Below are positions 1,427-56,779 of a stretch of 64,000 bases of DNA, piece by piece; position 1 is the stretch's first letter, and each line of letters starts with the position of its first letter. The DNA is from an uncultured Fibrobacteraceae bacterium (GTDB lineage: Bacteria; Krumholzibacteriota; Krumholzibacteriia; LZORAL124-64-63): assembly GCA_964524645.1 (NCBI GenBank), contig CAZGEC010000002.1, positions 5,005 through 69,004 on the forward strand, written 5' to 3'. The notes under the pieces are model-generated. The model was not told where the DNA came from, did not search any database, and saw only the letters and a program-made list of their open reading frames with translations. The position numbers and the translations under genes are program-made.

Positions 1427-2485
1427 TTAGGAAAAAACGAGATAGGGCCCGCCGGCGTCGCGCGGCCGGACCTCACCCACCACCGGAGCGCAGAGGGCGC
1501 CGGCGGCCAGCACCCCCGCCGCCAGCCGGTCGCAGGCGGCGGGCGGCACGGCCACGAGCAGGCCGCCGGAGGTCTGGGGATCGTGCAGCAGGCCGATCAG
1601 GCCCTCGTCCAGACCGGCGGGGAAGCGCAGGTGCTCGCCGGTGAAGGCCGCGTTGGAGCGCGTGCCGCCGCAGGTGAAGCCGCGCCCGCAGAGCGCGGCG
1701 GCCTCGGGCAGCTGCGGCAGGGCGGCGGTGTCGATCACCAAGGTCACGCCCGCCGCTCGCGCCATCTCGTAGCCGTGACCCGTCAGGCCGAATCCGGTCA
1801 CGTCGGTGGCGGCCGTGGCGCCCAGCTCGAATAGGATCTCACCCGGCCGGTTGAGGGACGTCATGACCTCGACGAGGGCCGCATAGCCTTCGCTGCCAGG
1901 AGGCAGCTGGCCCGCCCGGTGGGCCGCGACCAGGGCGCCGGTGCCCAGGGGCTTGGTCAGGATCAGCCGGTCCCCGGGTCGGGCCGTGCTGTTGCGCAGG
2001 ATACGGTCCGGATGCACGAGGCCGGTGACCGCCAGACCGAACTTGATCTCGGTGTCCCGCACCGTGTGGCCGCCGGCCACCGCGCAGCCGGCCTCGGCGC
2101 ACTTGCCCGCCGCCCCGGCCAGGATGTCCCGGATGATGGCCGCCGGGACCTCCTTCTCGGGGTACCCGCAGAGGTTCAGGGCCATCAGCGGCCGGCCCCC
2201 CATGGCGTAGATGTCGCTCAGCGAGTTGGCCGCCGCCACGGCCCCGAAGGTGAAGGGATCGTCGACGACGGGGGTGATGAAGTCCGCGGACGCGACGATC
2301 GCCCGCTCGGCGTCCAGACGGTAGACGGCGGCGTCGTCCGCCGTCTCGATGCCGACCAGCAGGTCGGCCGGACGTGCGGCCAGCAGATGATCCATCAAGT
2401 GCTCCAGGTCCACCGGACCCAGCTTGGCTGCTCAGCCGGCGCTCCTGGCGAACTTGGTGAGCGCGATCCGCTCCAGCTCGGACAT
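1427..2485 (-). CDS. selD: selenide, water dikinase (selenophosphate synthetase), selenocysteine-containing form
   Basis: Track ORF 1427..2413 (GTG start) aligns with E. coli SelD from residue ~30 onward (LLVGIETADDAAVYRL, SDIYAMGGRPL, DVTGFGLTGH). Reading upstream in frame through TGA at 2434..2432 gives MSELERIALTKFARSAG-U-AAKLGPVDLEHLM, which aligns with E. coli [30 protein letters not shown]. ATG is at 2485..2483 with AAGGCAAGGGGAG just upstream. Confidence 0.85.
2407..2419 (-). promoter_or_regulatory. candidate bacterial SECIS hairpin for selD (GGUCC-GGU-GGACC), 12 nt 3' of the UGA
   Basis: mRNA reads UGA GCAGCCAAGCUG GGUCCGGUGGACC. It is a perfect 5-bp stem with a GGU apical loop at the canonical ~11-nt spacing. 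Confidence 0.4.
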
Positions 2486-16354: not shown

Positions 16355-17803
16355 ATGCGCGAGTGGATCCACGACGCGGGCACCTTCCTGAGCCACATCG
16401 CCGACAGCTACGTGTGGGGCTGGGGTCCGTCCTTCCTGGGCGGGGTGCCGCTGATGGTCATCCTGCTGCTGGGCACGGGCATCGTGCTGACCTGCTGCAC
16501 GTTCGGGGTACAGGTGCGCTGGCTGGGTCGGGCCATCCGGCTCACCCTGACCGGCGCCGGCGGCAAGCGGATCAAGAGCCAGGTCGAGGGGGACATCACG
16601 CCTTTCCAGGCCCTGATGACCGCCCTCGCCGCGACGGTGGGCAACGGCAACATCGCGGGGGTCGCCACGGCGGTGGCCTCGGGCGGACCGGGCGCGGCCT
16701 TCTGGATGGTGATCACGGCCGTGTTCGGCATGGCCACCAAGTACTCCGAGTGCCTGCTGGGGGTGAAGTACCGCGTCAAGATGCCGGACGGGACCATGAA
16801 CGGCGGTCCCATGGACTACTGCAAGCACGGGATCGGCGGTCCGGTGGGCAAGGGCCTGGCCATGACCTTCGCCGCCTTCGGCACCATCTGCACGCTGGTC
16901 GGCACCGGGAATCCCTTTCAGACCAACTCCATGGCCCTGGCCTTGCGCACGCAGGCGGGCGTGCCCCAGTGGGTGACCGGGGCGATCGTGACCTTGCTGG
17001 TGGGCATGGTGATCATCGGCGGCATCAAGCGCATCGGCAACGTGGCGGGCAAGTTCGTCCCGTTCATGATCTTCTTCTACTTCGGCGGCTGCCTGATCAT
17101 CATCCTGGCCCGGATCACCGCCGTGCCGGGGGCGATTGCGACCATCGTGCGCTCGGCCTGGAGCCCGCAGGCCGTCTTCGGGGGTGCGCTCGGCTTCGGG
17201 ATCCAGCAGGCCATACGGTACGGCGTGGCCCGCGGCATCCTCTCGAACGAAAGCGGCCTCGGCACGGCCGGCATCGCCCAGGCGGCGGGCAAGAGCGACA
17301 GCCCGGCGGAGTCCGGTCTGGTGGGGATGATGGGCACCTTCATCGACACCATCATCGTCTGCAGCCTGACCGCCACGGTCCTGACGGTCACCGGCGTCTA
17401 TCGCTCCGGCCCGGCCTTCGGGGGCACCCTCAACTCCAGCGCCATGACCGCCGAGGCCTTCAACACGGTGATCCCCTTCGGCGGCTACATCGTGGCCGTG
17501 GCGTCCCTGCTGTTCGGGATCTCGACGCTCTTCGGGTGGTGCTACTACGGGGAGCAGTGCGTCCGCTACCTGTTCGGGCTGCGCGTAACGGCGGTCTACC
17601 GCGTGCTCTTCATCGTCATCATGTTCCTGGGCTCCCTTCCCGACGGGGAGAACTTCGACATCACCGCGGTGGTGGCCATCGGGGACATCGGCAACGGAAT
17701 GATGGCGATCCCCAACCTGATCGGGCTGCTGTTCCTGGCCCGGGTGGTCGCGCGCGAGACGCGGGACTACGCGATGGGTCATGGCGGCCCGCCTGGCGGA
17801 TGA
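16355..17803 (+). CDS. agcS: alanine/glycine:cation symporter (AGCS family)
   Basis: Contains TPFQALMTALAATVGNGNIAGVATAV, GGPGAAFWM and YSECLLGVKYR. Confidence 0.85.
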   Translation: MREWIHDAGTFLSHIADSYVWGWGPSFLGGVPLMVILLLGTGIVLTCCTFGVQVRWLGRAIRLTLTGAGGKRIKSQVEGDITPFQALMTALAATVGNGNIAGVATAVASGGPGAAFWMVITAVFGMATKYSECLLGVKYRVKMPDGTMNGGPMDYCKHGIGGPVGKGLAMTFAAFGTICTLVGTGNPFQTNSMALALRTQAGVPQWVTGAIVTLLVGMVIIGGIKRIGNVAGKFVPFMIFFYFGGCLIIILARITAVPGAIATIVRSAWSPQAVFGGALGFGIQQAIRYGVARGILSNESGLGTAGIAQAAGKSDSPAESGLVGMMGTFIDTIIVCSLTATVLTVTGVYRSGPAFGGTLNSSAMTAEAFNTVIPFGGYIVAVASLLFGISTLFGWCYYGEQCVRYLFGLRVTAVYRVLFIVIMFLGSLPDGENFDITAVVAIGDIGNGMMAIPNLIGLLFLARVVARETRDYAMGHGGPPGG

Positions 17804-18654
17804 GACCCGATCCGCCGGTGTTCTCCCTGATTTCTCGGTTCCAGCAAGGTGGTGGCTTCTTGAAGCGTTTGACGGCAAAGACCGCGGACAGGCACTGGCT
17901 CTATGAGCGCTCCGTCCAGAACCCCGATCAGGAGATCCCGTTCATCCGCCGCGTCTTCAAGCGGGAGTACGGTCGCCACCCCAGATTTCTGCGCGAGGAT
18001 TTCTGCGGCACGGCTCTGCTGAGCTGCCGCTGGGTCGCCGCCCACGGCGGCCACACCGCCCTGGGAGTGGACATTCACGGGCCGACCCTGGACTGGGGGC
18101 GCCGGCACAACCTGAAGCCGCTGGGCACCGCGGCGCAACGAGTCACGCTGGTGCAGGACGACGTGCGTCACGTGAGCCGGCCGCGGGCCGACGTCATCTC
18201 CGCGCAGAACTTCTCCTGGTGGACCTTCAAGACGCGCCGGGAGCTGTCCGGCTACCTGCACAACTGCCGGCGCTCGCTGCGGGACGAGGGCATGCTGCTG
18301 CTGGACATCTACGGCGGCCCCGAAGCACAGGTCCCCCAGCTGGAGGAGCGGGAGCAGGACGGCTGGACCTACGTCTGGGATCAGGACACGTTCAATCCCA
18401 TTACGCACGAGATCCGCTGCCTGATCCACTTCAAGTTCCCGGATCGCTCCCAGCTGAAGCGGGCCTTCCGCTACGACTGGCGCCTCTGGACTCTCCCGGA
18501 GACGCGGGATCTGCTGGAGGAGGTGGGATTCCGCAAGGTGGTCGCCTACTGGGAGATCGCGGACGGCGACGGCGAGCCCAGCGGCATCTTCCGTCCCGGA
18601 ACCCGGGGGGATCTGGCCCCGGCCTGGGTGGCCTACCTGCTGGCCTACAGGTGA
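17800..18654 (+). CDS. class I SAM-dependent methyltransferase
   Basis: Lies in the C-terminal part of track ORF 16363..18654, a frame-fusion artefact. ATG 17800 overlaps the agcS stop (ATGA). The SAM-binding region is DFCGTALLS...LGVDI. Confidence 0.65.
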   Translation: MRPDPPVFSLISRFQQGGGFLKRLTAKTADRHWLYERSVQNPDQEIPFIRRVFKREYGRHPRFLREDFCGTALLSCRWVAAHGGHTALGVDIHGPTLDWGRRHNLKPLGTAAQRVTLVQDDVRHVSRPRADVISAQNFSWWTFKTRRELSGYLHNCRRSLRDEGMLLLDIYGGPEAQVPQLEEREQDGWTYVWDQDTFNPITHEIRCLIHFKFPDRSQLKRAFRYDWRLWTLPETRDLLEEVGFRKVVAYWEIADGDGEPSGIFRPGTRGDLAPAWVAYLLAYR

Positions 18655-18807: not shown

Positions 18808-19077
18808 ATGAGCGGCGGCGAGTGCGCCTGGTGTGGCGAGGAGATCACCGGTGAGGGCGTACGTTCCAAGAAACTGGTCTTCTGTTCCGCTGAATGCCGC
18901 GAGGAGTACGAGGATGACCTCGCCGGTACCTTGAAGTCGGAGGCCGACGATCTGGACGAGGACCTCGATGGCGGGGATCTCGAGGAGTTCGACTTCGATG
19001 ACGAGGACGAGCTGATCGAGGACGAGCTGCTCGAAGACGAGGACAGCTATTCCACGGACGGGGACGACGACTACTGA
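18808..19077 (+). CDS. zinc-ribbon protein with a long poly-acidic C-terminal tail
   Basis: MSGGECAWCGEEI...VFCSAECREEYEDD is followed by DLDEDLDGGDLEEFDFDDEDELIEDELLEDEDSYSTDGDDDY. GGAGG lies 9 nt upstream of ATG 18808. Confidence 0.5.
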   Translation: MSGGECAWCGEEITGEGVRSKKLVFCSAECREEYEDDLAGTLKSEADDLDEDLDGGDLEEFDFDDEDELIEDELLEDEDSYSTDGDDDY

Positions 19078-19137: not shown

Positions 19138-19175
19138 AAAAGAAGAGGAGCTCGATGCCGAGCTCCTCTTCTTGC
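19138..19175. terminator. perfect 15-bp hairpin (AAGAAGAGGAGCTCG-atgc-CGAGCTCCTCTTCTT), a bidirectional terminator between convergent genes
   Basis: Read directly. On the minus strand it is followed by a TTTTCAG run. Confidence 0.6.
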
Positions 19176-19208: not shown

Positions 19209-19547
19209 TCAGCAGGAGCAATCGCTCCCGCAACCGCCACCGGCCTTGCCCAGCCTGACCAGGTAGCCCTGCCTCTGCTCCTCGTCCACGTAATCGATCT
19301 CCAGGCCACCGTTTTCCCGGAGCAGCCCGATCGTCTGGGTGTCCAGCAGGAACCGGTATCCTTCCCGCTGGACGATCGTGTCATCCTGTCGCGGCTCGTC
19401 CAGAGCCAGGCCGATGGCCGGCCCACCTCATCCGAAACCCTGCACGAAGATCCGGATGGCATCGCGCGGTGCCTGCGCGGCGAAGTCGAAGTCGCCGAAG
19501 GCCTTCTCGGCGCCGGGCGAAACCTGGATCAGACCCGAGTCTGGCAT
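19209..19547 (-). CDS. HesB/IscA-like A-type Fe-S carrier, selenocysteine-containing (UGA at 19430..19428)
   Basis: Not in the ORF track. Hand translation gives MPDSGLIQVSPGAEKAFGDFDFAAQAPRDAIRIFVQGFG-U-GGPAIGLALDEP...GYRFLLDTQTIGLLRENGGLEIDYVDEE...GKAGGGCGSDCSC. It aligns with E. coli IscA, where the first ligand Cys35 is replaced by the UGA codon, and it ends with the Cys-x-Cys-type C-terminal motif. A 112-codon frame is intact and AGGAAGGTG lies upstream of the ATG. Confidence 0.8.
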
Positions 19548-19611
19548 GAGTCACCTTCCTGTTGCTGCTGCCTCGCCTGCCGGGGCGGGCAGGTCCGAAG
19601 ATCCGGGAACA

Positions 19612-19640
19612 AGTATAGAATATTAAGAACTCTGCGGCAA
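19612..19640 (-). promoter_or_regulatory. sigma-70-like promoter TTGCCG-N17-TATACT for the HesB-like selenoprotein gene
   Basis: Read on the minus strand. It lies ~60 nt upstream of the ATG. Confidence 0.45.
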
Positions 19641-20361: not shown

Positions 20362-23300
20362 CTACTTCACGAGCGTCAACTTGCGGACCCGGCGCTCACC
20401 ACTGGATCTGAGCACTGAGAAGTAGACGCCGGAGGCCACCCGCCGGCCGTGGCTGTCCACTCCGAGCCAGGTGACCTCATGGTGGCCCGGGCCGAGCCGA
20501 TCGCTGACCAGGGTGGCGACCTTCCGTCCCGAGATGTCGTACACCGCCAGCTCGACCTGCCCGGCCTGGGGCAGGTCGAACCCGATGACGGTCCTGGGAT
20601 TGAAGGGATTCGGGGAGTTGCCGCCGAGGGTCAGCTCCGACGGCAGGCTGACGAGGTCCTCGGTCACGCCCGAGAGAATCCCCCGGTCCGCCGTGAGCAG
20701 GAAGTCGTCGACCCCGGCCTCGACCAGCGATCCCGACGCGTCGTCCGAGGCCACGAATCGCACCTGCACCTGATCAGTCAGGGTGATGAAGTCGGTCAGC
20801 TCGAAGGTAAACTGGGTCCACTCGGCCAGGGTCTGCTGGGTGTGTTCCAGGCTGACCCAGTTGACGCCGTCGCTGGTCACGTCGACGGCCCACCAGTCCT
20901 GGTCCGGCGCGCTCCCCCAGGAGTTGGTGTACCAGCGATAGTAACTGATGGTGGCTGAGAGTGCGTCGCTCAGGTCGAACACCGGGGTCAGCAGCGTTGT
21001 CTTGCCGTTGTCCACGTCGTTCTCTCCGGCGGCGCCGCCCAGCGAGCCGTTGCCGGTAACGAAGCACAGCGCGCCCGCGTCCGGCGAGGAGTCGTCCTCC
21101 ATCTGGATCACATGACCGTCGTACTCGGTGCCGATGGGGTCGACCCGCACCCAGATGCCGCTCGTCGCATCATCGCCCGGAGCGCCCACTGTCCAGCCGC
21201 GGTCGGTCTCGAACGCATCGAACCAGCCGCCGACGGGCAGCTCGACGTCCAGATCGGCCAGGAAGCCGTTGGCCGCCGTGATGTTCAGGTCGAGGGTGAG
21301 AGTGGAGGGCGAGGGGCAGTCGGGCAGGATCTCCACATTGAACGACCCGATCCAGCCCTCTCCGGATACCGGCACGGCGGTGCAGCTACCGCTGCTCTGG
21401 TGCACGATCACGTTGGGGTCGGCGCAGGACAGCGTTCCGGTCAACACGTCAGCGGCCGAATGCCCGGTATTGCCGAGGCGCACTTGCAGGTTGACGGTCT
21501 CGCCGCTGTCCGCGCCGCCGTTGCCGTCGCCGATCAGATCGGTGACGAGGATACCCTGCGGTTCCAGGACCGGGGCCTGGGCCACGAGGGTGAAGCTGCC
21601 CTCCCAGCCCTCCTCGCTCCCGTTGATCGACAGGTTGAACATGATGGGGTGGCCATCGGGAACGTCTCCTGCGACCCGGACGGGATAAGGTGAGAGCGAG
21701 GTGCCGGAGCCGCCGGACGGGATGTCCGGGAAGGAGCTGGGCCGGAGATCCACCTGGACGTTTGGATCGCCGGAGCCGAGAACCGCGCTGACGCCCGTGG
21801 CGGTCTCGGTGCCCACGTTCTCCAAGGTGATCTCGATCTGGGCCCTCTCACCTTCGTCCAGTACGCCGTCCATGTCCCCTTCGGCATCGTGCACGACCTG
21901 ATCTGCCACGACCAGGTAGGGTCCGGCAGGGGACACCACGGGCACCGCCCGGCGGTAGCGGTAGTGGTTCTGCTTGGTCACCGTCACCACGAATTCGTCC
22001 CCGGGCGGCAGCGGCGGGATCGTGAAGCCGATCGGAGCACCATGGCTGGTGGCCGCGCCGATCAGTTCGCCGGCGACCGACAGGCCGATCAGGGCATCCT
22101 CATCCGCGGTGACGGTGAAGGAGTTCATCCCGCTCACCAGAACCGGAGCGTGATCGACCGCCAGATCCTCGGGCAATTCCGAGAACACGGTCATGAAGGC
22201 GCCGCCGTGGTGGTGGAAAAGATGGTACGTGTCCGCCTTGTAGCTCGAGTTGTAGGGCCAGCTGGAGGCCTGCAGGTAGTACTTGCCGTAGGCGCTGCCG
22301 AAGGCCGGTTTCACGTCGACCGGACCCGGCACGCCGTAGCCGGGATCAAAATCGGGCCACATGAAGTCGTACATGCCCCAGACGTAGGCGTCGTTCACGA
22401 AGGAGAAGGAGGTCTCCGTGGCGGCGATCAGGCCGAGCGCTCCCTGGGCGTGGCGATGGAACACCTCGGCGAAGCACTCGCCGGCCATGTTGTACATCCC
22501 CGTCAGGCAGTTGACGGAGAAGACGAAGGTCAGCTCGTCGTTGTGCAGGCCCGTCAGGTTGCCGATCTGGTAGGAGGGTTCGCCCCAGCCGGACGTCGCG
22601 CCGTGATCGCGGTGCTGCAGGATGAAGGCGCCCGCGTTCACGTCGTTGTTTATGCGGCTGGCGCTGCCCCCCCAGTCGGTCAGGTACGAGGGAGTGGCGG
22701 GTATGTACCCGAGCCCGCTGGGCCCGAAGTAGTTGACCACGGTGGCGGTGTTCGACGCGGTCGACCACGACGAGCCGGGCGAGCCTTCGTAGATGGCGTA
22801 TTCGCGCACCGGCGTCTTGCCTTGTACGTTGTTGAAGTAGCCGAACAGGACTTCGCTGCAAAGGATGAACCAGCGTTCGGTCTGCCAGCCGCCGGCGATG
22901 ATCGGATGGGCGTAGAAGCCGGGATCGGTGGGCGGTTGCCGCTCGTAGTTCAGCATCTTGCCGATCATTCCCGCCAGCTCCGCCTCGTTGCGGGCGGTGA
23001 TGCGGGCGGGGACCATGTCGGGAAGGCCGTCGCCGTCCACGTCGGCGTACATGTTGTCCGATGCGATGCTGGCCAGGTGGCCCGAGTAGAAGGGCGTGAT
23101 GAGCCCGCTGGAGCCGGTCCCGTAGTCGCCCAGCAGCAGGAACGCCGCCGGCGGGATGTCCCAGGTCTGATAGGCGTTGTTCAGGTAGCCCTCGATGGCG
23201 CTGGTCGTGTTGCCGCCGATCTCGCCGACCGTGGCGATGTCGGTGAGGATTCCCTGCTCGCTACGCCAGAGCTTGAGGGTGTCGGCCCAGGCCACGAACT

Positions 23301-24087
23301 CGGGGGAATCCTGGCAGATGATCAGGTACTCGCAGCCGGTATCCCGCGCACCGGACTGGACCTGGTCGTCGATCTCTGGCAGGGAGGCGTAATTGACCAG
23401 CAGATCCTTCATGATCGGGTCCCACCAGCGGCTGCGCAGGCGGGGCTGGCCGAACTCGCCGCTGCCGCCCTGGAAGCTCACCTCGATCTGCAGGTCGCGA
23501 TAGACGAGCAGCTCCTTGCTGACCGGGTTGTACTGGAACGGCGTGATGCCCAGCAGCACGGTGGCAACACCGCGGATCTGCTGCAGGCCAGACAGGAGGG
23601 CTGGAGCCTCCGGGTAGAAGGCGTCGCGCTGGTAGATCGCATCGTTGATGGGGTAGTCCAGGGGACCGTCCTCGGTTTCCAGGGGCAGGCGGGGCGCCGG
23701 CGCCAGATCGATGTCGCTCAGAGTCTCGGTCCGCATGGCCACGATCCGCAACGAGACCTGGGCCCCGTTGGGTACCGCGATGTACCAGCCCTGGCCGGGC
23801 AGGTTGGGCGCGCCGGCATCGTTGGGCAGCAGCATGCCCGGTACGTTCACCGTCTGCCTGGTCTGGCCGTCGATGTCGATCGTGCCGAGCTGCCAACTGT
23901 CCAGGGAGAAGGCGAGCTCGACCCTGTCGGAGGCTTGCTGCAGCAGGGTCAATCCCGGATCGCCGAAGCCGTCGGTGTAACGGAAGTCGGTCGCCAGCAG
24001 CGGGGTTGCGACCAGCAGGATCAGAAAGCAGGTGATGAAGTTCGTCGCCGGCCTTCGCAAACGAGGAGAATCATGTCGTAGGGCCAT
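20362..24087 (-). CDS. peptidase C25 (gingipain-like cysteine protease) with a T9SS C-terminal sorting domain
   Basis: The gingipain catalytic region has His (RDHGATSGWG) and Cys (VNCLTGMY). The signal peptide is MALRHDSPRLRRPATNFITCFLILLVATPLLA. The C-terminus NPFNPRTVIGFDL...VYDISGRKVATL...SGVYFSV is a T9SS/FlgD-Ig-like CTD. The start is at Met 24087; the track starts at GTG 24120. Confidence 0.8.
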   Translation of the reverse strand: MALRHDSPRLRRPATNFITCFLILLVATPLLATDFRYTDGFGDPGLTLLQQASDRVELAFSLDSWQLGTIDIDGQTRQTVNVPGMLLPNDAGAPNLPGQGWYIAVPNGAQVSLRIVAMRTETLSDIDLAPAPRLPLETEDGPLDYPINDAIYQRDAFYPEAPALLSGLQQIRGVATVLLGITPFQYNPVSKELLVYRDLQIEVSFQGGSGEFGQPRLRSRWWDPIMKDLLVNYASLPEIDDQVQSGARDTGCEYLIICQDSPEFVAWADTLKLWRSEQGILTDIATVGEIGGNTTSAIEGYLNNAYQTWDIPPAAFLLLGDYGTGSSGLITPFYSGHLASIASDNMYADVDGDGLPDMVPARITARNEAELAGMIGKMLNYERQPPTDPGFYAHPIIAGGWQTERWFILCSEVLFGYFNNVQGKTPVREYAIYEGSPGSSWSTASNTATVVNYFGPSGLGYIPATPSYLTDWGGSASRINNDVNAGAFILQHRDHGATSGWGEPSYQIGNLTGLHNDELTFVFSVNCLTGMYNMAGECFAEVFHRHAQGALGLIAATETSFSFVNDAYVWGMYDFMWPDFDPGYGVPGPVDVKPAFGSAYGKYYLQASSWPYNSSYKADTYHLFHHHGGAFMTVFSELPEDLAVDHAPVLVSGMNSFTVTADEDALIGLSVAGELIGAATSHGAPIGFTIPPLPPGDEFVVTVTKQNHYRYRRAVPVVSPAGPYLVVADQVVHDAEGDMDGVLDEGERAQIEITLENVGTETATGVSAVLGSGDPNVQVDLRPSSFPDIPSGGSGTSLSPYPVRVAGDVPDGHPIMFNLSINGSEEGWEGSFTLVAQAPVLEPQGILVTDLIGDGNGGADSGETVNLQVRLGNTGHSAADVLTGTLSCADPNVIVHQSSGSCTAVPVSGEGWIGSFNVEILPDCPSPSTLTLDLNITAANGFLADLDVELPVGGWFDAFETDRGWTVGAPGDDATSGIWVRVDPIGTEYDGHVIQMEDDSSPDAGALCFVTGNGSLGGAAGENDVDNGKTTLLTPVFDLSDALSATISYYRWYTNSWGSAPDQDWWAVDVTSDGVNWVSLEHTQQTLAEWTQFTFELTDFITLTDQVQVRFVASDDASGSLVEAGVDDFLLTADRGILSGVTEDLVSLPSELTLGGNSPNPFNPRTVIGFDLPQAGQVELAVYDISGRKVATLVSDRLGPGHHEVTWLGVDSHGRRVASGVYFSVLRSSGERRVRKLTLVK

Positions 24088-24236
24088 GGAGATCTCCTGG
24101 ATCGGGGGGTGAAGGTGCACCTGGGGTCCAGAAAGCGCTCCCCGATGATGTCCGGCTGCGATGCAGAATCAATGGCCGCACCGTTTGCGGGGATAGTACC
24201 ACGAGGGCCGGGGGTCAGGCAATTCACAAGGCCCTG

Positions 24237-24426: not shown

Positions 24427-26415
24427 TCACTTCAGGATGGTCACCTTCTGCACCTGCATGACCTCGGTGCCGATGCGCAGCCGGGCGAAGTAGGTGCCGC
24501 TGGAGACACGCTGTCCACTCGTGTCGCTGCCGTCCCAGGTGATGCGGTACTCCTGCGGCGCCAGCCGGCCGTTGACCAGCGTCGAGACGAGCTGGCCGCG
24601 TATGTCGTAGATGTTCAGCTGGGTCAGCTCGTTCCGGTTCACCCGGAAGCGGATCTCCGTCTTCGGGTTGAACGGGTTCGGGTAGACCTGCAAGCCGCCG
24701 CCCGCCGGCTCCACCGGCAGCTGATCCCCGACGCCGGTGAATCCGGTCAGGGTGATGTACTCGTCCGCCAGCGGGATGATGTTGCGGCTGTAGTAGAAGT
24801 CCATGAAACCCTCGACCAGCACCACGTCACCGATGGTCGGATCGTAGGACAGGGTCACGTAGGGATCGACGTGGCAGGAGTCGGCCCGCGCGCCCGTATC
24901 CGAGATCAACCAGGCCAGCAGCACGGTGCCGCCGGTGTCCATGATCCGATCCACGACCTGGGCATAGTACGTCTTGATCCAGACGCTCTCGTAGGCCTCG
25001 CCCAGGTTGCCGTTGCCGTCGTCCAGCGTGTTGTCCGACAGGTCGCGGGTATGCGCCCTGGTCGGCGGGGGCAGGTCGTTCCCGTAGGAGACGAGGTACA
25101 CGGCCGACGGCTTGTGGGGATTCAATTCCGTCAGACCGTAGTACTCGTCGACGACGCCGCCGACCCGGACCCGGTCGCCCCGCAGGACGAAGTTGGCGGC
25201 CGTGCCCTCGTAGACCAGCACGCCGCCCCACTTGTAGGTGCCGGGATCACCCACCCCTGCGCCGTGGATGACGGGATCGTAAGGCAGAGGCTCCTGCAGG
25301 ATGAACTTGCTGTCCGCCTGCACCTGCCCCGTGCCAGCCGTGACGATGGCCTCGATGTTGATGGGCTTGCCAACAAAGGGGCTGCCCTGGTAGACGCTGT
25401 CCGGATGCGCCCACTGCATGGCGTAGATGGACGTGGTGCCGATGGCGAACGACAGGAACACGCCCGGGGCCGCGCCCGGGTTCTTGGTGGTCAGACCGTC
25501 GCCATCCAGCGTCTGGAGGTAGAAGTCCACCTGGCTGTTGGTGTGGGGCGCCGGGATCGTCCCCTCGTAGGTGTCCCCCGAGGTGTTGGTCATGGGTACC
25601 GAGGACCAGGTGCCCGTGCCGCTGCCGTCGCTGTTTCGATAGTACAGCGTGGCGCTGGAGATCGTCATCGAGCCCACCGGATCGAAGATGCTCGCCGAGA
25701 CCGTGACGGGCTCGCTCGCCAGAGGCGCCCAGTTGTCGCAGTCGATGCTCTCGATCACGGGGTAGTTGGTGACGATGTCGCTCTGCTTGCGGGGCTTCAG
25801 CTCGATCAGCCCGTTGTAGACCGTCACGGGCGAGATCACGCGGATCTCGTCGCCGTTGCCCAGGCCGCTCAGGTCGATCCCGGTGTCGCTGTCGACGTAC
25901 ACGATGATCGTGTCACCGGCCCCGTTGTGGAGGTTGAACGGATTGCTGCCGGCCCCGTCCACGAAGCCGGGGACCGACGCGAAGTTGCCGACCTGCTCGT
26001 AGTTGAACGGGTGCACCAGGTCGGCGATCGGCGTGTCGGTGGGGACCGGAACGGTGCCGCCGGGGAGAATGGTGATGGTCGGGGTGGCGAGTTGGATCTC
26101 GCCCTGGAACGTGCTGACCGTTCCCGTGACCTCGACTCGGTCACCGTAGGTCAGCGGCGGCGCGGCCGCCGCGAAGAACTGGATGCCGCCGGTGGCGCCC
26201 AGGATGTAGTGCGTGCCCGTGTTGTAGGTCCCCTTGACCACGTAGATGTCTCCCGTGACCGTCACCACCTGGCCGTTACAGGGGCTGGCCGGGGCGCCGG
26301 TTACGGGATCGTACTGCTGGATCTCGTCGATGGTAGAGCACGGCTGGGCCCAGGCCATACTGGCCAGCAGGGCACCTGCGAGCAACACGAGTGCGCCAAA
26401 AAGATGCTTCCTCAT
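24427..26415 (-). CDS. secreted hypothetical protein with a T9SS C-terminal sorting domain
   Basis: The signal peptide is MRKHLFGALVLLAGALLASMAWAQP, and AAGGAGG lies upstream of the ATG. The CTD is NPFNPKTEIRF...IYDIRGQLVSTL...SGTYFARL. The start was set at 26415; the track ORF extends to 26505. Confidence 0.7.
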   Translation of the reverse strand: MRKHLFGALVLLAGALLASMAWAQPCSTIDEIQQYDPVTGAPASPCNGQVVTVTGDIYVVKGTYNTGTHYILGATGGIQFFAAAAPPLTYGDRVEVTGTVSTFQGEIQLATPTITILPGGTVPVPTDTPIADLVHPFNYEQVGNFASVPGFVDGAGSNPFNLHNGAGDTIIVYVDSDTGIDLSGLGNGDEIRVISPVTVYNGLIELKPRKQSDIVTNYPVIESIDCDNWAPLASEPVTVSASIFDPVGSMTISSATLYYRNSDGSGTGTWSSVPMTNTSGDTYEGTIPAPHTNSQVDFYLQTLDGDGLTTKNPGAAPGVFLSFAIGTTSIYAMQWAHPDSVYQGSPFVGKPINIEAIVTAGTGQVQADSKFILQEPLPYDPVIHGAGVGDPGTYKWGGVLVYEGTAANFVLRGDRVRVGGVVDEYYGLTELNPHKPSAVYLVSYGNDLPPPTRAHTRDLSDNTLDDGNGNLGEAYESVWIKTYYAQVVDRIMDTGGTVLLAWLISDTGARADSCHVDPYVTLSYDPTIGDVVLVEGFMDFYYSRNIIPLADEYITLTGFTGVGDQLPVEPAGGGLQVYPNPFNPKTEIRFRVNRNELTQLNIYDIRGQLVSTLVNGRLAPQEYRITWDGSDTSGQRVSSGTYFARLRIGTEVMQVQKVTILK

Positions 26416-26694
26416 CCTTTCGGCCTCCTTATTGTTGTGGAGAAAGAACTGCGCTTCCGCGAACAGTGTCGTTGTCAAGTGTCGGACAGCGAGTGGAAAG
26501 GACACGTGTTCCGAGACGACAGTCTCCTGGAGAAAGCTCGCGAGCGCCGTGCTCGCGAGACGCTCACCTCCTCCCTTCCGCTAGGACGGTTGAGGACGGA
26601 CGGTTGCTTTCTGGAAGGCATTGTATCACACGAAATCGGTGATTTCCATGAACTTCAGGTAAAAAAGAGGTGATGAACGCTCGCTTATCGCCGG

Positions 26695-28840: not shown

Positions 28841-28848
28841 GGGCCCGT

Positions 28849-28929
28849 CGTTCCGTTAGGGGTGGCTACGGCCTGAGAGAGACCCTCCGAACCTGAACCG
28901 GATCATACCGGCGTAGGGAAACGGGAACG
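28849..28929 (+). ncRNA. TPP (THI-box) riboswitch
   Basis: GGGGUGGC...CUGAGAgagACCCuccGAACCUGAaccGGAUcAUaCCGGCGUAGGGAA matches the THI-box consensus. The P1 stem is CGUUCCGU / ACGGGAACG. Confidence 0.85.
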
Positions 28930-28945
28930 CGAGACTCTCCCTCTG

Positions 28946-29014: not shown

Positions 29015-31519
29015 ATGTCCGCTCCGCAGCGTGCGTCCGGACTGCGCGCGAGTGCGGCGCTCCTGCTCGCCGCGTGTCTGCTGGCCGGCGGCCCGGCGGC
29101 CGCCGGCGAGGTCCTCGGCGGACGCGTCACGGACGCCGAGACCGGTCTGCCGCTCGTCGCGGCCAACGTGTACGTGCAGGGCCGTACGACGGGCACCGTC
29201 AGCACCGCCGGAGGCTACTTCAGCCTCCGCAACCCGCCGTCGCAGCCCTTCACCCTGGTCGTCACCTACGTGGGCTACGCGCCTGCGCTCCTGAAGATCG
29301 ATCCCGCGACCCTCGCTCCGGGGCGGGAGCTGTCAATCGCTCTGCAGCCGGTCGTCTACACCCACGAGGAGATCGTGATCTCGGCCTCGCGCTACGGCTC
29401 GGACCTGCAGCTGACCCACACCAACATTCCCGGCGACGAGATCGAGCGGGAGCGGTCCCTGGTCGACATTCCCGTCCTGCTGGAGAACGTGCCCGGCGTG
29501 TACGCCACCAGCGACGCCGGCAACGGCGTGGGTTACACCTACCTGCAGATCCGCGGCTTCGATCAGCGCCGGATCGGCGTGCTGGTCAACGGCGTGCCCC
29601 TCAACGATCCCGAGGACCAGCAGGTCTACTGGGTCGACCTGCCCGATCTGGCCTCCTCGCTGGAGGACATCCAGGTCCAGCGCGGGGTGACGAACTCCCT
29701 GGGCGGCATGCCGGCGCTGGGCGGGACGGTCAACCTGCAGACCGACGTGCTCCCCGTGGAGCCGGGTGGCCGGATCTCGCTGCAGTACGGCAGCTACAAC
29801 ACCTCGAAGCAGACCCTGCTCTACGACACGGGGCTGCTGGGCGGGAGCTTCGCCTCCGGCCTGCGCGTCACCCATCTGGAGAGCGACGGCTACCGGGACC
29901 GGGCGGGCTCGTCCCAGTGGGCGGTGTTCTGGAGCGGGCGCTACGTGACCCCGCACAGCGCCACCGATCTGTACGTCTGGACCGGCCGCGAGCTGACCCA
30001 GCAGGCCTGGTACGGCATCGACGAGGCGACCCTCGCCCGCGACCGCACGGCCAATCCCGAAACCTACCACAACGCGGTGGACGACTTCCGGCAGCCCCAG
30101 GTCCAGCTGCATCACACCCGGGATCTCTCCGACCGGATCTCGCTGCGCAACACCTTCTTCTGGGTCCACGGCGAGGGCTACTACGAGAACTTCAAGGCGG
30201 ACGCGACGGCCCGGGACTTCAGCCTCGACTATTACCTGGGTCTGGCCCCCGACGCCGAGGTGAACCTGGTGCGGCGCAAGTGGGTGCGCAAGGACCAGGC
30301 GGGCTGGTCGCCCCAGCTTAGGGTGGAGCACGCCGGCGGGCGCCTGCTCGTCGGCGGCGACGCCTACACCTTCCACAGCAACCACTGGGGCGAGGTCCTG
30401 TCGGTCGACGGCTTCACCAGCGACCAGCTGGTGGGTGGCCTGAAGTACCACGATTACACCGGCGACAAGCAGGCCTGGTCGGTCTACCTCAACGATCACT
30501 GCGACGTCGTCGGTGGGCTGACCGCGCTGCTGGATCTGCAGTATCAGTACAGGACCTACGACTTCGCCCAGGACGAGCTGGCCAACTTCCGCGGCCTGGA
30601 GCGGAACGCCTACCGCGTGGAGTACGAGTTCTTCAATCCCAAGGGGGGGCTGCACTGGCGGCTGCCCGGCACGGTGGCCGGCGGCCGGATGGCCCTCTAC
30701 GCCCATGTGGGCATCGGCCGGCGCGAGCCCGCGGACAGCGATCTCTTCGACACCTGGCAGGGTCCGGACGACCTGGGCGCGGCCCCGCTGTTCCGCAACA
30801 GCCGTGTGGTCTACCGGGACGACGGCGTGACCGTCGACCACGTGGAGTGGTCGGATCCCATCGTGCAGGAGGAGAAGGTGGTCGACTGGGAGGCGGGGGC
30901 CACCTACCGCAGCGGATGGCTGTCGGCCACCCTGAACGGCTACTGGATGGACTTCACCGACGAGATCGTCCCCTACGGCACCGTGGACGCGGACGGCTTC
31001 GGCATCCGGGGCAACGCCGGCAAGACCCTGCACCGGGGCGTCGAGCTGGGCCTGAGCTGCCAGCCGGCCGCGGGACACCTGATCAGCCTGGCCGCCTCGC
31101 GCAGCTGGGACGAGTTCGAGCACTTCATCTTCCACGACTGGGACGGGACCGCCCTGGACTACTCGGGCAATCCCCTCCCCCTGTTTCCGCGGCACATGAT
31201 CACGCTCCGCTGGCGTGCGACCTGGGGCGCCCTGCAGACGGAGCTGCGGCTGCGGCGGATCGGCAAGCAGTATCTGGACGACACCGGCAACGAGGAGCGC
31301 ACCATCGCTCCCTACGAGACCGTCGACCTGGCCGGCTGGCTCGACCTGGCGCGGCTGGGCCTCGGCGGCTGGGAGGGAGCGCGCGTGGAGCTGCGCCTGC
31401 GGAATCTGCTGGACGCGGAGTACGAAACCAGCGGATACTTCGATGGCTGGGGGGCCGGTAACTACAAGATTCCTGCTGCCAAGCGCAACTTCCTGCTGGG
31501 CGTGCACTACGATTTCTAG
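29015..31519 (+). CDS. TonB-dependent outer-membrane receptor (carboxypeptidase-regulatory-like N-domain, plug, barrel)
   Basis: Signal peptide is followed by the CarbopepD-like VLGGRVTDAETGLPLVAANVYVQG. The TonB box / plug region is EIVISASRYGSD...IQVQRG, and the C-terminus is ...FLLGVHYDF. Confidence 0.9.
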   Translation: MSAPQRASGLRASAALLLAACLLAGGPAAAGEVLGGRVTDAETGLPLVAANVYVQGRTTGTVSTAGGYFSLRNPPSQPFTLVVTYVGYAPALLKIDPATLAPGRELSIALQPVVYTHEEIVISASRYGSDLQLTHTNIPGDEIERERSLVDIPVLLENVPGVYATSDAGNGVGYTYLQIRGFDQRRIGVLVNGVPLNDPEDQQVYWVDLPDLASSLEDIQVQRGVTNSLGGMPALGGTVNLQTDVLPVEPGGRISLQYGSYNTSKQTLLYDTGLLGGSFASGLRVTHLESDGYRDRAGSSQWAVFWSGRYVTPHSATDLYVWTGRELTQQAWYGIDEATLARDRTANPETYHNAVDDFRQPQVQLHHTRDLSDRISLRNTFFWVHGEGYYENFKADATARDFSLDYYLGLAPDAEVNLVRRKWVRKDQAGWSPQLRVEHAGGRLLVGGDAYTFHSNHWGEVLSVDGFTSDQLVGGLKYHDYTGDKQAWSVYLNDHCDVVGGLTALLDLQYQYRTYDFAQDELANFRGLERNAYRVEYEFFNPKGGLHWRLPGTVAGGRMALYAHVGIGRREPADSDLFDTWQGPDDLGAAPLFRNSRVVYRDDGVTVDHVEWSDPIVQEEKVVDWEAGATYRSGWLSATLNGYWMDFTDEIVPYGTVDADGFGIRGNAGKTLHRGVELGLSCQPAAGHLISLAASRSWDEFEHFIFHDWDGTALDYSGNPLPLFPRHMITLRWRATWGALQTELRLRRIGKQYLDDTGNEERTIAPYETVDLAGWLDLARLGLGGWEGARVELRLRNLLDAEYETSGYFDGWGAGNYKIPAAKRNFLLGVHYDF

Positions 31520-31553
31520 CGCGGGTGCCGGCCGGCACGACCACCGGAGCTGC

Positions 31554-32276
31554 ATGTCCACGCTGGAATCGCGGAGCGGGGGCGGCGAGTTCTGCCCCAT
31601 CTTTCTGAAGGAAGGCCCCCGGGCCGTCGTCCTCTGCGACGGTCCGCCGCCGCCGCCGCCGCTGCTCGACTACTGGCTGCAGGGAGTGGACCTTTTCGTC
31701 TGCACCGATGCCGCCGGTCATCCCTACGACCACCTGCCCCGCCTGCCGGACATCGTCATCGGGGACTTCGACTCGCTGACCGGGCGCATCCTGACCGGGA
31801 AGAACGGCCCGCGCTACCTGCTGGTGAAGGAGCAGGAAACCACCGATTCGGAAAAGGCGCTCCTCTACGTGGTCGAGCAGGGTCTGACCGAGGCGGTCCT
31901 GCTCGGCGCCGCCGGCTGGCGCCTGGACCACACCCTCTTCAACTGCTTCCTGCTGGAACGCTTCGCCGACCGGCTGCGCGTCTGCCTGGCCGGTCACCAG
32001 TCCGACGCCGTGCGCGTCGCCCCGGACCAGCCGGTGGTCTGGCGTCTGGATCCCGGGACCGGCTTCTCCCTCCTGCCCCTGGCTGGAGCGGCCTCCGGCG
32101 TGACGGTGGAGGGGGCACGCTACCCGCTGCGCAACGCCATGATCCGGGCCGGCGGCCCGGCCACCATCTCTAATCGCGTGCTGACCTCCCCCCTGCGGAT
32201 CACCCTGGGCGAAGGTTCGCTCCTGGTGACCGTGGATCGCGGAGGACGACCCGATCTGCTGGGCGATCTCGACTGA
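31554..32276 (+). CDS. thiamine pyrophosphokinase
   Basis: Contains AVVLCDGPPP, VDLFVCTDAAGH and DIVIGDFDSL. It lies in track ORF 31215..32276, with the start at ATG 31554. Confidence 0.75.
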   Translation: MSTLESRSGGGEFCPIFLKEGPRAVVLCDGPPPPPPLLDYWLQGVDLFVCTDAAGHPYDHLPRLPDIVIGDFDSLTGRILTGKNGPRYLLVKEQETTDSEKALLYVVEQGLTEAVLLGAAGWRLDHTLFNCFLLERFADRLRVCLAGHQSDAVRVAPDQPVVWRLDPGTGFSLLPLAGAASGVTVEGARYPLRNAMIRAGGPATISNRVLTSPLRITLGEGSLLVTVDRGGRPDLLGDLD

Positions 32277-32278
32277 TC

Positions 32279-33664
32279 ATGCTCCTGGCCGCGGTCTACA
32301 TCCTCTTCCTCGTCTACGTGGTGCTGCGTCTCTTCCGCCGGCCTACGGGGAATGCCGCGGACTACCTCGTGGTCGGCCGGCGCCTGACCCTGCCCGCCTT
32401 CGTGGCGACGCTCGTTGCCACCTGGTACGGGGGCATCCTCGGCGTGGGGGAATACGCCTGGCGCTACGGCGTGAGCAACTGGCTGGTCTTCGGGGTGCCT
32501 TATTACATCGCGGCGGGCATCTTCGGCCTGTTCCTGGCCGGCCGCATCCGGCGCAGCCAGGTCCTGACCATTCCCGACCAGCTGGAGCGCCGGTACGGGC
32601 GGGGCACCGCGCTGCTGGGCGCTGGGGTGCTCTTCGTCATGACCGCCCCGTCGGCCTACGTGCTGATGCTCGGGGTGCTGGTCCGCCTGGCCACGGGCTG
32701 GCCGCTCTGGGTGGGAGTGGCCCTCGGGACCGCGCTCTCGGTGGGCTACGTCTTCCGCGGCGGGCTGCGGGCCATCATCACCACCGACATGGTGCAGTTC
32801 GGCCTGATGTTCCTGGCCTTCCTGGTGCTGGTGCCGACCTGCATCGCGCGCTACGGAGGCTGGGAGTTCCTGAAGGGAGCGGTGCCACCGAGCCACCTGA
32901 CCTGGGATGGGGGCCGGGGCTTCCAGGCGGTGGCGGTCTGGTACGTCATCGCTTTGGCGACGCTGGTGGAGCCGGCCTTCTACCAGCGGTGCTACGCCGC
33001 CTCCAGCGAGCGGACGGCGCGGGCCGGCGTCGGGATCTCCATCCTCTTCTGGATCTTCTTCGACTTCCTGACCACGACGGCCGGCCTCTACGCCCGCGCG
33101 GTGCTGCCGGACCTGGCCGATCCCGTGGCGGCCTTTCCGGCCCTGGCCGAACGGACGCTGGCCCCCGTCTGGCAGGGTCTGTTCACCGTGGGGTTGCTGG
33201 CCGCCATCATGTCCACCGTGGACAGCTACGCCTTCATCTGCGGCATCACCGTGGGCCGGGACATCGTGCAACGCTGGCGGGCTCCGCGCGGAGCGAGCCC
33301 CGGCACCGGCCTGCTGGCGGAGGACGCCATCTCGCTGCGACCGATCCGCTGGGGATTGCTGGCCACGGCGGTCCTGGCGGTCGTGTTGGCCCTCTGGGCC
33401 GGCTCGGTGGTGCGGCTGTGGCACGATCTGGGCAGCATCGGGACGCCGGTCCTCCTGCTGCCCCTGGCGCTGGGCCACGGCCGGGCCGCACCGCGCGGCC
33501 GCTGGGTCCCGGCCGCCATGGCCCTCTCCGGGGGCACCGCCCTCGCCTGGCTGCTGCTGGGCGCGGGCCGGCCCTTCCTGGGGGTGGAGTCCATCTTCCC
33601 GGGCCTGGCCGTCTCCCTGCTGGTGCTGCTGCCGGGATGGTTCCGGGGGCGGACGGCCGCCTGA
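32279..33664 (+). CDS. sodium:solute symporter (SSF) family transporter
   Basis: 13-TM protein with SSF N-terminal blocks (YLVVGRRLTLPAFVATLVATWYGGILGVGEYAW). It starts 3 bp after the TPK stop. Confidence 0.8.
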   Translation: MLLAAVYILFLVYVVLRLFRRPTGNAADYLVVGRRLTLPAFVATLVATWYGGILGVGEYAWRYGVSNWLVFGVPYYIAAGIFGLFLAGRIRRSQVLTIPDQLERRYGRGTALLGAGVLFVMTAPSAYVLMLGVLVRLATGWPLWVGVALGTALSVGYVFRGGLRAIITTDMVQFGLMFLAFLVLVPTCIARYGGWEFLKGAVPPSHLTWDGGRGFQAVAVWYVIALATLVEPAFYQRCYAASSERTARAGVGISILFWIFFDFLTTTAGLYARAVLPDLADPVAAFPALAERTLAPVWQGLFTVGLLAAIMSTVDSYAFICGITVGRDIVQRWRAPRGASPGTGLLAEDAISLRPIRWGLLATAVLAVVLALWAGSVVRLWHDLGSIGTPVLLLPLALGHGRAAPRGRWVPAAMALSGGTALAWLLLGAGRPFLGVESIFPGLAVSLLVLLPGWFRGRTAA

Positions 33665-55087: not shown

Positions 55088-56779
55088 CTAGCGGATCAGA
55101 CCGAGCTTGCAGGCCGGGCCGACCGCCCGCCCGTCCAGCAGGAGGCGGCCGCAGTAGACGCCGCTCGGCAGCTCGCGGCCCGCGGCGTCCCGGCCCTCCC
55201 AGGTGATTCCCTGCTCGCCCGCCGGCCGCTCTCCGCCTTCCAGGCGTGCGACGAGCCGCCCGCGCGCGTCGTACAGCCGCAGGCTCACCTCTCCCGGACG
55301 GGCCAGGACGAAGCGGATCTCCGTGCGCGGGTTGAAGGGATTGGGCCGCCCGCCCAGCAGGGTCGCGGTCCAGGCGCTGCGATCGGTCTGTGCGGGAGTC
55401 CGGGCGTTCGCCACGTTCGAGAGGGCCGAGACGTGGCCCGGCTCGCCGTAGGCGCCCCACTCGTCGAGCACCCGGAGGGCGAAGTAGTAGCGCATACCAG
55501 GCTCCAAGCCGCTCGCCCGTGCCTTCTGCCAGCTCCCGGGTGCGCCAGGCGGCGGTACATCGCTCACCGGCGTGGCCGTGGCGAAGCTGGACGCATCGAG
55601 TGGCTCGGTGGCCCGGCGGAGATCGTAGGCCGCTGCCCTGCCCTCGGTGCCGTCGTCGCCCGTGGCCGTCCAGCGGAGCAGCAGCGTGGTGCTGTCGGCA
55701 TCGTAGACCGCGAGATCGAGCACGGGTGCGGGTGGAATGCTGTCCGGTTCCGCGAGGGCCCGGAAGGCGTCGAGCCGGCCGCCCGTGATCACCAGGCCCG
55801 CCAGCTCGGGCGTCGCAACGGTGCCGGCAAGGATGCGGGCCTTGACCGCTCCGGCGTCGAGCGCCGGGAAGCGCCCCCGCACCAGAGCGGCCACGCCGGC
55901 CACCATGGGCGTGGCAAACGAGGTGCCCAAGACGTAGTCGAAGCCGCCGCTGCCCGCCGGCACCAGGATGCGCACCCCCGGTGCGGCCAGATGCACGCTC
56001 TCGTCGCCGTAGTTGAAGATCTGCTGGCCGTCGGGTTTCAGACCGGTCACGCAGATGATGTTGGGCAGGTCGTAGCAGCACGGGTACTCCGGCGCGGCGT
56101 CCACGTCCCGGCCGTCGTTTCCCGCGGAGCAAACGATCAAGAGATCGTGCTCCAGGGCGTAGAGGCAGGCCGCGTAAAGGTCGTCGAGATAGTGCTGGGG
56201 GGCGGAGTACGGGATGTCCCAGCTGACGTTGATGACCTCGGCGCCCGCGTCGGCCGCCGCGTAGATGGTCAGGATCCGCGAATCGATGAGTGACGAGCTG
56301 CGCACCGGCAGCAGCGAGACCTCCCAGTTGATGCCGGTCATGCCAAGCCCGTTGTGGCCGACGGCGCCGATGATGCCCGCGATGGCCGTGCCGTGATGGA
56401 CGCTCTTGGGGGTGGGCTCGTTCGCCAGCTCGTAGCCCTTCCCGCCGCGGAGGGGAGGAATGACGATCGCCGGCAGCAGGTTGGCGGCCAGGTCCGGGTG
56501 CCCGGCGAGATCGAAGTCGCTGTCGCTGATCGCCACGATGACGGAGCGCGAGCCCGTCGAGACGTTCCAGGCGGCCGGGGCCGCGATGTCGATGCCGGCG
56601 ATCGCCGGCAAAGGGCCGGCGTTGTCCCCGGTGTTCTGCAGCGACCACTGGTCGGGAAAGCGGGGATCGTCCGGCAGGATGGCCGGAGCCAGCGCGGCGA
56701 TGGCGAGCAGGACGGCCGCAGGGATCGCCAGGAGCCGCCGCCGGGCGGTCGAAACGGATACGCGTCGAGAAGCCATCAC
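55088..56779 (-). CDS. S8 (subtilisin-like) serine peptidase with a T9SS C-terminal sorting domain
   Basis: The His motif is HGTAIAGIIGA and the Ser motif is GTSFATPMVAGVAAL. A signal peptide is present. The CTD is NPFNPRTEIRF...LYDARGRLVARL...SGVYCGRL. Confidence 0.85.
   Translation of the reverse strand: MMASRRVSVSTARRRLLAIPAAVLLAIAALAPAILPDDPRFPDQWSLQNTGDNAGPLPAIAGIDIAAPAAWNVSTGSRSVIVAISDSDFDLAGHPDLAANLLPAIVIPPLRGGKGYELANEPTPKSVHHGTAIAGIIGAVGHNGLGMTGINWEVSLLPVRSSSLIDSRILTIYAAADAGAEVINVSWDIPYSAPQHYLDDLYAACLYALEHDLLIVCSAGNDGRDVDAAPEYPCCYDLPNIICVTGLKPDGQQIFNYGDESVHLAAPGVRILVPAGSGGFDYVLGTSFATPMVAGVAALVRGRFPALDAGAVKARILAGTVATPELAGLVITGGRLDAFRALAEPDSIPPAPVLDLAVYDADSTTLLLRWTATGDDGTEGRAAAYDLRRATEPLDASSFATATPVSDVPPPGAPGSWQKARASGLEPGMRYYFALRVLDEWGAYGEPGHVSALSNVANARTPAQTDRSAWTATLLGGRPNPFNPRTEIRFVLARPGEVSLRLYDARGRLVARLEGGERPAGEQGITWEGRDAAGRELPSGVYCGRLLLDGRAVGPACKLGLIR

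Follow-up and report, generated by a model that had tools for sequence, protein, structure and literature searches.

Does the minus-strand reading frame at positions 19547..19209 of the 64-kb window (the whole 64,000-nt stretch of contig CAZGEC010000002.1, from an uncultured Fibrobacteraceae bacterium, that was analysed here) represent a broken gene, or is the TGA codon within it read as selenocysteine (Sec)? The frame comprises 112 codons, including Sec40, and ends with a TGA stop codon at 19211..19209. Its translation, identical to that quoted in the original prediction, contains a single in-frame TGA, at 19430..19428, which lies within the motif G-F-G-U-G-G-P at the position equivalent to Cys35 of E. 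coli IscA. From the sequence evidence, the locus is very probably a gene for a Sec-decoded HesB-like selenoprotein, and the interpretation of 19547..19209 (-) as a whole that is developed below is probably the right one. The GC content by codon position is 0.69/0.46/0.82 before the internal TGA and 0.72/0.44/0.83 after it, as is typical of real genes in this window with its ~70% GC. As had been predicted, the gene as a whole is absent from the lists of open reading frames (ORFs): the N-terminal half is a 39-aa ORF that starts with ATG, and the C-terminal half is missing because it has no start codon (no ATG, GTG or TTG until near its end). In two public assemblies of the locus, the annotation consists of the 39-aa stub only.

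The TGA codon is conserved among relatives. An exhaustive HMMER search, for which the 72-residue stretch behind the TGA served as the query, retrieved 63 relatives, about half of which are proteins of 58-74 aa that start at M(G)(L/M)ALDEP, directly after the UGA position; the rest are full-length and have Cys in place of Sec, and Trp occupies the position in three. In the same search, 10 separate stretches of a protein of 2087 aa (P0020) match query residues 33-68; it could consist of repeats derived from a portion of the HesB-like domain, or the matches could be a compositional artefact. The DNA behind truncated or "W" entries was fetched singly for seven orthologue loci, one of which (L004) is a syntenic orthologue. 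In all seven, the codon in question is TGA, and a conserved N-terminal frame leads up to it (...LIQVS..A..AF..FD...R.F.QGFG-TGA-[GS]GP...). We also scanned metagenomes with degenerate peptide patterns derived from a 5-sequence alignment, one of the two patterns demanding Cys. Among the 80 loci found, 73 carry TGA at the Sec codon and seven carry TGT or TGC (Cys), and the peptides on both sides of the TGA are conserved in these relatives. Since the TGA is conserved together with both flanking peptides, chance can be excluded as an explanation. The homologues do not simply end at the UGA with no frame behind it, the outcome that the original prediction had named as speaking against itself. A word-indexed protein search with the selenoprotein returned no match because the relatives are stored as truncated calls. 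A metagenome scan with the single window protein as the query found no relatives, and a scan of the genome collection gave only an unrelated ErpA-type locus (L001) among the matches listed.

The RNA that follows the codon is constrained as well. A nucleotide alignment of 76 unique Sec-type sequences (A3), running from 6 nt upstream to 59 nt downstream of the UGA, reveals a pair of small hairpins side by side after this codon. The distal one, helix 2 (GGCUC-UGGAC-GAGCC, 19393..19407 (-)), is the putative core hairpin of the selenocysteine insertion sequence (SECIS). It has a 5-bp stem and a 5-nt loop from 25 nt after the UGA, with a predicted free energy of -8.4 kcal/mol, and it is formed in 76/76 Sec-type genes, compared with 4/11 Cys-type genes that encode the same A-L-D-E-P peptide. 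Its synonymous sites are fixed: among 73 unique sequences, in all of which the hairpin is intact, Ala is GCU in 72/72 (one Thr is ACU), Leu is CUG in 73/73 and Glu is GAG in 73/73, while the shares of GCU, CUG and GAG elsewhere in the same genes are 14%, 34% and 47%, respectively. In the genome, GCU makes up 4.7% of the Ala codons; of the nine in this gene a single one is GCU, and it lies in the stem of helix 2. In one sequence a G:C pair is replaced by A:U through a compensatory change (Ala to Thr, Pro to Ser); a second one contains a G.U pair. In the UGGAC loop, the G at position 2 is a synonymous site and is fixed in all 76 sequences. The possibility that the hairpin is a by-product of the conserved A-L-D-E-P peptide was rejected, since the synonymous sites are fixed and the Cys-type genes use other codons.

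The proximal hairpin, helix 1 (GGGCCG-GCCAU-CGGCCU, 19408..19424 (-)), has a 6-bp stem and a 5-nt loop from 9 nt after the UGA, with a predicted free energy of -10.6 kcal/mol. Two of its pairs join third positions of codons and covary (45 C:G versus 19 G:C), with a mutual information of 0.70, the highest in the region, and with 84% paired versus 53% expected, although this covariation may be inflated by relatedness among the sequences. Taken together, the two helices have 94.3% of their cells paired; in shuffles the figure is 87.8%, with 0/500 attaining the real value, and sliding the partners gives 49% at most. With RNAalifold, the Sec set is predicted to fold into both hairpins and the Cys set into neither, and the combined free energy of the two helices is -19.0 kcal/mol. 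According to the model of bacterial SECIS elements, the loop has 3-9 nt and the stem 4-16 bp, a G stands in the first two loop positions, 16-37 nt separate the UGA from the apical loop, and the minimum free energy is -7.5 kcal/mol or lower (PMC13188914). Helix 2 agrees with this model in all four respects (5 nt and 5 bp, UGGAC, 25 nt, -8.4 kcal/mol). Helix 1 agrees in loop and stem (5 nt and 6 bp) and in free energy, but its spacing of 9 nt is outside the range. Hence the stem GGCCG-GCCAU-CGGCC, which had been put forward as a candidate SECIS structure of this gene, is present, conserved and covarying, but it lies too close to the UGA for the SelB-binding loop; it is probably an accessory or spacer helix. 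We infer that helix 2 is the better candidate for the SelB site. Helix 2 resembles the bacterial consensus (bSECISearch model, PMC13188914 Fig. 2A) in loop, stem, a G at loop position 2 followed by another G, spacing and free energy. In contrast to that consensus, a second small, covarying hairpin lies here between the UGA and the core, and the 15-nt core is invariant in all sampled clades, whereas bacterial SECIS elements are described as generally dissimilar (PMC13188914). Speculatively, the SECIS of this family might be a two-hairpin element with a 15-nt core frozen across phyla.

What kind of protein would be made by reading through the UGA? At the profile level, the window protein is clearly a homologue of IscA and HesB, as its sequence had suggested. 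A profile of its 27-member family matches the solved structures of Aquifex AQ_1857 (1e-20), HI1723 (9e-18), E. coli IscA (9e-15), the [2Fe-2S] IscA of T. elongatus (4e-10) and SufA (4e-8). In a pairwise alignment, residues 28-107 correspond to residues 23-100 of E. coli IscA, with U40 at Cys35 and C106 at Cys99; the alignment shows Sec at the first-ligand position of A-type carriers, where the original prediction had placed it. The equivalence that had been claimed for the C-terminal Cys-Gly-Cys motif holds for C106 only. The C-terminus reads C-G-S-D-C-S-C, with Ser108 at the position of Cys101 followed by C110 and C112 as C-S-C, so that, of the two ligand cysteines at this end of IscA, the first alone has a counterpart in register, and the family has an extra conserved Cys there. 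An AlphaFold (AF2) model exists for P0001, the nearest full-length homologue with Cys in the clade of the window protein; it has a mean predicted local distance difference test (pLDDT) score of 88.8, and its top Foldseek matches are 1r94, 1s98, 2d2a and 1x0g, with template modelling (TM) scores of 0.6-0.76. Against IscA the TM score is 0.64-0.76, and SufA, HI1723 and DsrR are also among the top structural matches. By proxy, through this homologue, the predicted fold of the window protein matches that of IscA.

In the mechanism that we propose, the UGA at 19430..19428 would be read as Sec in the translation of a 112-residue HesB-like protein with the IscA/HesB fold. SelB with Sec-tRNA(Sec) would be recruited by the mRNA element just downstream, composed of helix 2 with its UGGAC loop and the short covarying hairpin before it, and this recoding element would overlap the codons for G-P-x-x-G-[LM]-A-L-D-E-P. 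The Sec-type SelD (selenide, water dikinase) that is encoded in the window would supply the selenophosphate needed to make Sec. Its gene, which had also been pointed out before, is located at 1427..2485 (-), matches TIGR00476 with 344.7 bits (cut-off 125), and has a UGA at 2434..2432 in S-A-G-U-A-A-K; 17 nt after this UGA there is a hairpin, CUGGGUCC-GGU-GGACCUGG, at 2422..2404, with 8 bp and a GGU loop. The selD gene is a selenoprotein gene itself, and the ORF lists cut it at the UGA at 2434..2432. The HesB-like protein would then dimerise and hold a transient iron-sulfur (Fe-S) cluster or iron between Sec40 and the cysteine cluster C106/C110/C112, and the selenolate would change the lability of the ligand or the redox behaviour.

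The selenoprotein family itself is not new: knowledge of HesB-like selenoproteins goes back to the mid-2000s. In a survey of 2006, it was the sixth most numerous family of bacterial selenoproteins, with 11 members found mostly in anaerobes (PMC1794560). A review of 2026 gives the motif UxGP and the model TIGR01911 for the family (PMC13188914), and a HesB-like selenoprotein of M. maripaludis has been confirmed by 75Se labelling (PMC11097638). The original prediction described such proteins as known but rare, and the second half of that description is at variance with the rank in the survey and with the Sec codon in 73/80 relatives. The window protein shares with the HesB-like family (UxGP; TIGR01911, NF038090; Kryukov/Zhang/Gladyshev surveys, PMC1794560, PMC13188914) the homology to IscA/HesB, the Sec motif, here U-G-G-P, and the G-[ML]-A-L-D-E-P that follows it. 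The same nucleotide-invariant hairpin is found in loci L040, L042 and L089, which pass NF038090 at 116-118 bits. Another common trait is the occasional exchange of Sec for Cys. The near-identical proteins of L095 (TGT) and of L092 and L096 (TGA) differ in Cys/Sec, and the hairpin of L095 is intact; L095 looks like a recent Sec-to-Cys swap with a remnant SECIS, comparable to the conversions that left remnant SECIS-like hairpins in the 2006 survey, e.g. in D. hafniense (PMC1794560). Unlike the curated clade, the clade of the window (27 loci) scores 50-64 bits with NF038090 and 27-39 bits with TIGR01911, below the cut-offs. It is ~30-35% identical to the curated clade, carries the motifs Q-G-F-G-U-G-G-P ... 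G-G-L-x-I-D-Y-V-D-E ... K-G-Y, and has conserved neighbours of its own. Judged by these sequence relationships, the window protein is a new member of the HesB-like family as defined in the literature, in a sister clade outside the limits of the curated models. With the A-type carriers IscA, SufA and ErpA (PF01521, TIGR00049; PDB 1r94, 1s98, 1x0g, 2d2a) it shares the fold, the positions of Cys35 and Cys99, and a similar size. It differs from them by Sec instead of Cys at the first ligand, by G-P instead of S-G after this ligand, by C-G-S-D-C-S-C instead of C-G-C, by its location outside an isc, suf or nif operon, and by the lack of a Pfam match and a sub-threshold score with TIGR00049.

The conserved neighbours of the window's clade lie downstream of the selenoprotein gene, in convergent orientation. 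The nearest gene (18808..19077 (+)) encodes an 89-aa protein with the pattern C-x2-C-G...F-C-S-x2-C and a long acidic tail. A homologue of this protein occupies the same position in 19/27 loci of the clade (including L004, L005, L010, L019-L025, L027, L029, L030, L034-L037 and L039) and in 0/64 other loci. The four-cysteine pattern C-x2-C-x15-17-C-x3-C is invariant, the best matches of the individual members, to the treble clefs TRASH, zf-FCS and L24e, all stay below gathering scores (E 0.0001-0.1), at most 4/15 members match any one family, and the PDB profile matches have E >= 0.12; these data point weakly to a treble-clef zinc ribbon of the FCS/TRASH/L24e type. Upstream of it on the same strand (17800..18654 (+)) lies a gene of ~285 aa that resembles class I S-adenosylmethionine (SAM)-dependent methyltransferases and is conserved in 16/27 loci of the clade and in 0/64 loci of other clades. 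Its matches to Methyltransf_12/25/11 are sub-threshold, it has no NCBIfam match, and it matches the SAM-dependent methyltransferase PDB 1wzn at 1e-6. Further upstream, a gene for a Na:alanine symporter (16355..17803 (+)) is common to the window and to L005-L007. As the neighbours are convergent, their link to the selenoprotein gene is one of synteny only. The neighbours of the curated NF038090 clade (a subset of L040-L098, e.g. L042, L047, L058 and L068) differ from these. There, a protein of ~209 aa that looks like an RdgB/HAM1-type nucleoside triphosphate pyrophosphatase is found in 23 loci and a look-alike of YggS-type pyridoxal phosphate proteins in 11 loci, both labels having been given by reading the sequences instead of scanning for families. 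If anything about the locus is new, it is the conserved neighbourhood of zinc-ribbon and methyltransferase-like genes.

Several results weigh against the proposed reading, in its decoding part or in its functional part. A Pfam search of the protein with U replaced by C gave no match at E <= 1, PF01521 included; the test that had been suggested together with the original prediction thus turned out negative. The best NCBIfam match is NF038090 IscA_HesB_Se, with 54.7 bits against a cut-off of 85, and TIGR01911 HesB_rel_seleno (38.8 bits, cut-off 66.35) and TIGR00049 (41.6 bits, cut-off 58.8) are likewise sub-threshold. In single-sequence folding, the whole segment after the UGA folds no better than shuffles (z = -1.0), so that the support for the SECIS is comparative and not thermodynamic, and a search of Rfam yielded no SECIS family, whether gathering thresholds or E <= 10 were applied. 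The 64-kb window contains no tRNA gene, tRNA-Sec included, and neither selA nor selB is among its annotated genes. The C-terminal cysteines form C-x3-C-x-C instead of C-x-C, Fe-S assembly genes are not among the conserved neighbours, and a role as Fe-S carrier is hypothetical for every HesB-like selenoprotein, that of M. maripaludis included (PMC11097638).

With regard to decoding, the locus might be read as an IscA/HesB gene inactivated by a nonsense mutation and yielding a peptide of at most 39 residues, which is how gene callers treat it, and the lack of any curated model passing its cut-off would fit. However, the same TGA stands in 73/80 diverged relatives with both flanks conserved at the protein level, the sequence after the TGA looks no less coding than that before it, the RNA behind the codon is under a constraint specific to Sec genes, and no downstream frameshifts or stops were seen in the metagenome loci. 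On the basis of the conserved codon and flanks the pseudogene was rejected, and we regard it as scarcely credible. Decoding of the UGA in another way, as Trp or Gly by a reassigned code or by near-cognate read-through, seems highly improbable too. It would draw on the Trp found at the Sec position in the database proteins P0019, P0022 and P0035, but the DNA of P0019 (locus L012) has TGA at that codon and its translation with table 11 differs from the database protein, so that the assembly was evidently called with a code in which TGA is Trp. In the window, TGA is the ordinary stop of 20/34 confident genes, which means that the genetic code is standard, and a reassigned code was rejected on this ground; other TGAs flanked by coding signal in one frame mark places where neighbouring genes lie in the same frame by coincidence. 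Moreover, the only alternatives found at the position are Cys codons, it is followed by a hairpin in agreement with the bacterial SECIS model, and selD itself carries Sec.

Granted Sec decoding, the function of the protein is the less certain part. By analogy with the A-type carriers, the window protein may carry Fe-S clusters or iron, with a selenolate as one of the ligands, a proposal that we advance tentatively and would call close to evenly balanced. Alternatively, with the same decoding, it could serve a role outside Fe-S metabolism, in which Sec40 and the C-terminal cysteines form a redox-active selenenylsulfide, or in which soft ligands (Se, S, a metal or metalloid) are bound or transferred; it might then work with the acidic zinc-ribbon protein and the methyltransferase-like enzyme. 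Such a role is a serious possibility, but on balance somewhat doubtful. Prokaryotic selenoproteins are thought to be mostly redox proteins (PMC13188914), and the hesB-like disruption mutant of M. maripaludis still fixes nitrogen, the function of the protein being described as "is not clear" (PMC11097638). The extra conserved Cys at the C-terminus, the clade-specific neighbours, the absence of isc, suf and nif genes nearby, and the presence among the structural matches of DsrR, an IscA-fold protein of sulfur metabolism, point the same way. On the other hand, Sec lies exactly at the first cluster-ligand position of A-type carriers and the fold matches theirs; the neighbours are convergent and so not co-transcribed with the gene, their assignments as zinc ribbon and methyltransferase are sub-threshold, and the curated sister clade has unrelated, housekeeping-looking neighbours (by reading of the sequences). 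A more specific extension is that the window's clade, in which 26/27 loci have Sec, is a distinct uncurated HesB-like subfamily with a two-hairpin SECIS that is coupled to the ribbon mini-protein and the methyltransferase-like enzyme in a module for a soft metal or metalloid (e.g. selenium) rather than for general Fe-S assembly. We consider this extension speculative and rather unlikely.

The signals that flank the gene agree in part with those originally described. A sigma-70-like sequence, TTGCCG-17-TATACT (19612..19640 (-)), is present as predicted, matches the consensus at 9/12 positions, and is the one site found where 0.1 would be expected by chance; by this consensus match it is promoter-like. 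The predicted Shine-Dalgarno-like sequence, GGAAGGTG, can be read at 19552..19559 (-), 4 nt before the ATG at 19547. Between the convergent genes there is a perfect 15-bp hairpin (19140..19173 (-)), a candidate terminator, within a 96-nt segment that folds at -48 kcal/mol (z = -2.8). The hairpin that had been described as a terminator is thus real, but the terminator scan did not call it, because its stem absorbs most of the U-run.

The window is ordinary chromosomal DNA, apparently of an anaerobe. A glycyl-radical pyruvate formate-lyase gene at 57761..60136 (+) (715 bits) indicates an anaerobic lifestyle, which fits the reported bias of HesB-like selenoproteins towards anaerobes. A thiamine pyrophosphate riboswitch (28848..28936 (+), 71.3 bits) precedes genes at 29015..33664 (+) for a TonB-dependent receptor, a thiamin pyrophosphokinase and a sodium:solute symporter, which probably form a thiamine-salvage operon. 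A C25 peptidase, an unassigned protein and an S8 subtilase (20362..24120, 24427..26505 and 55088..56779, all (-)) have C-terminal FlgD_ig or Por_Secre_tail domains, and these sorting domains suggest a lineage with a type IX secretion system.

The locus makes no fundamental addition to biology, the family having long been known, but it is a clean case of a real gene lost to annotation. For this locus and the relatives inspected, the public assemblies hold only the 39-aa stub or a fragment that starts from M-A-L-D-E-P, and many database proteins of the HesB-like family have the same truncated form. Since the clade lies below the curated cut-offs, Sec-aware pipelines that rely on those models could miss its members; a TGA followed by 20 nt and then by GGCUCUGGAYGAGCC is a signature by which such genes may be recovered. 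For the family itself, the conserved neighbourhood of zinc-ribbon and methyltransferase-like genes offers a modest new lead towards the function of HesB-like selenoproteins.

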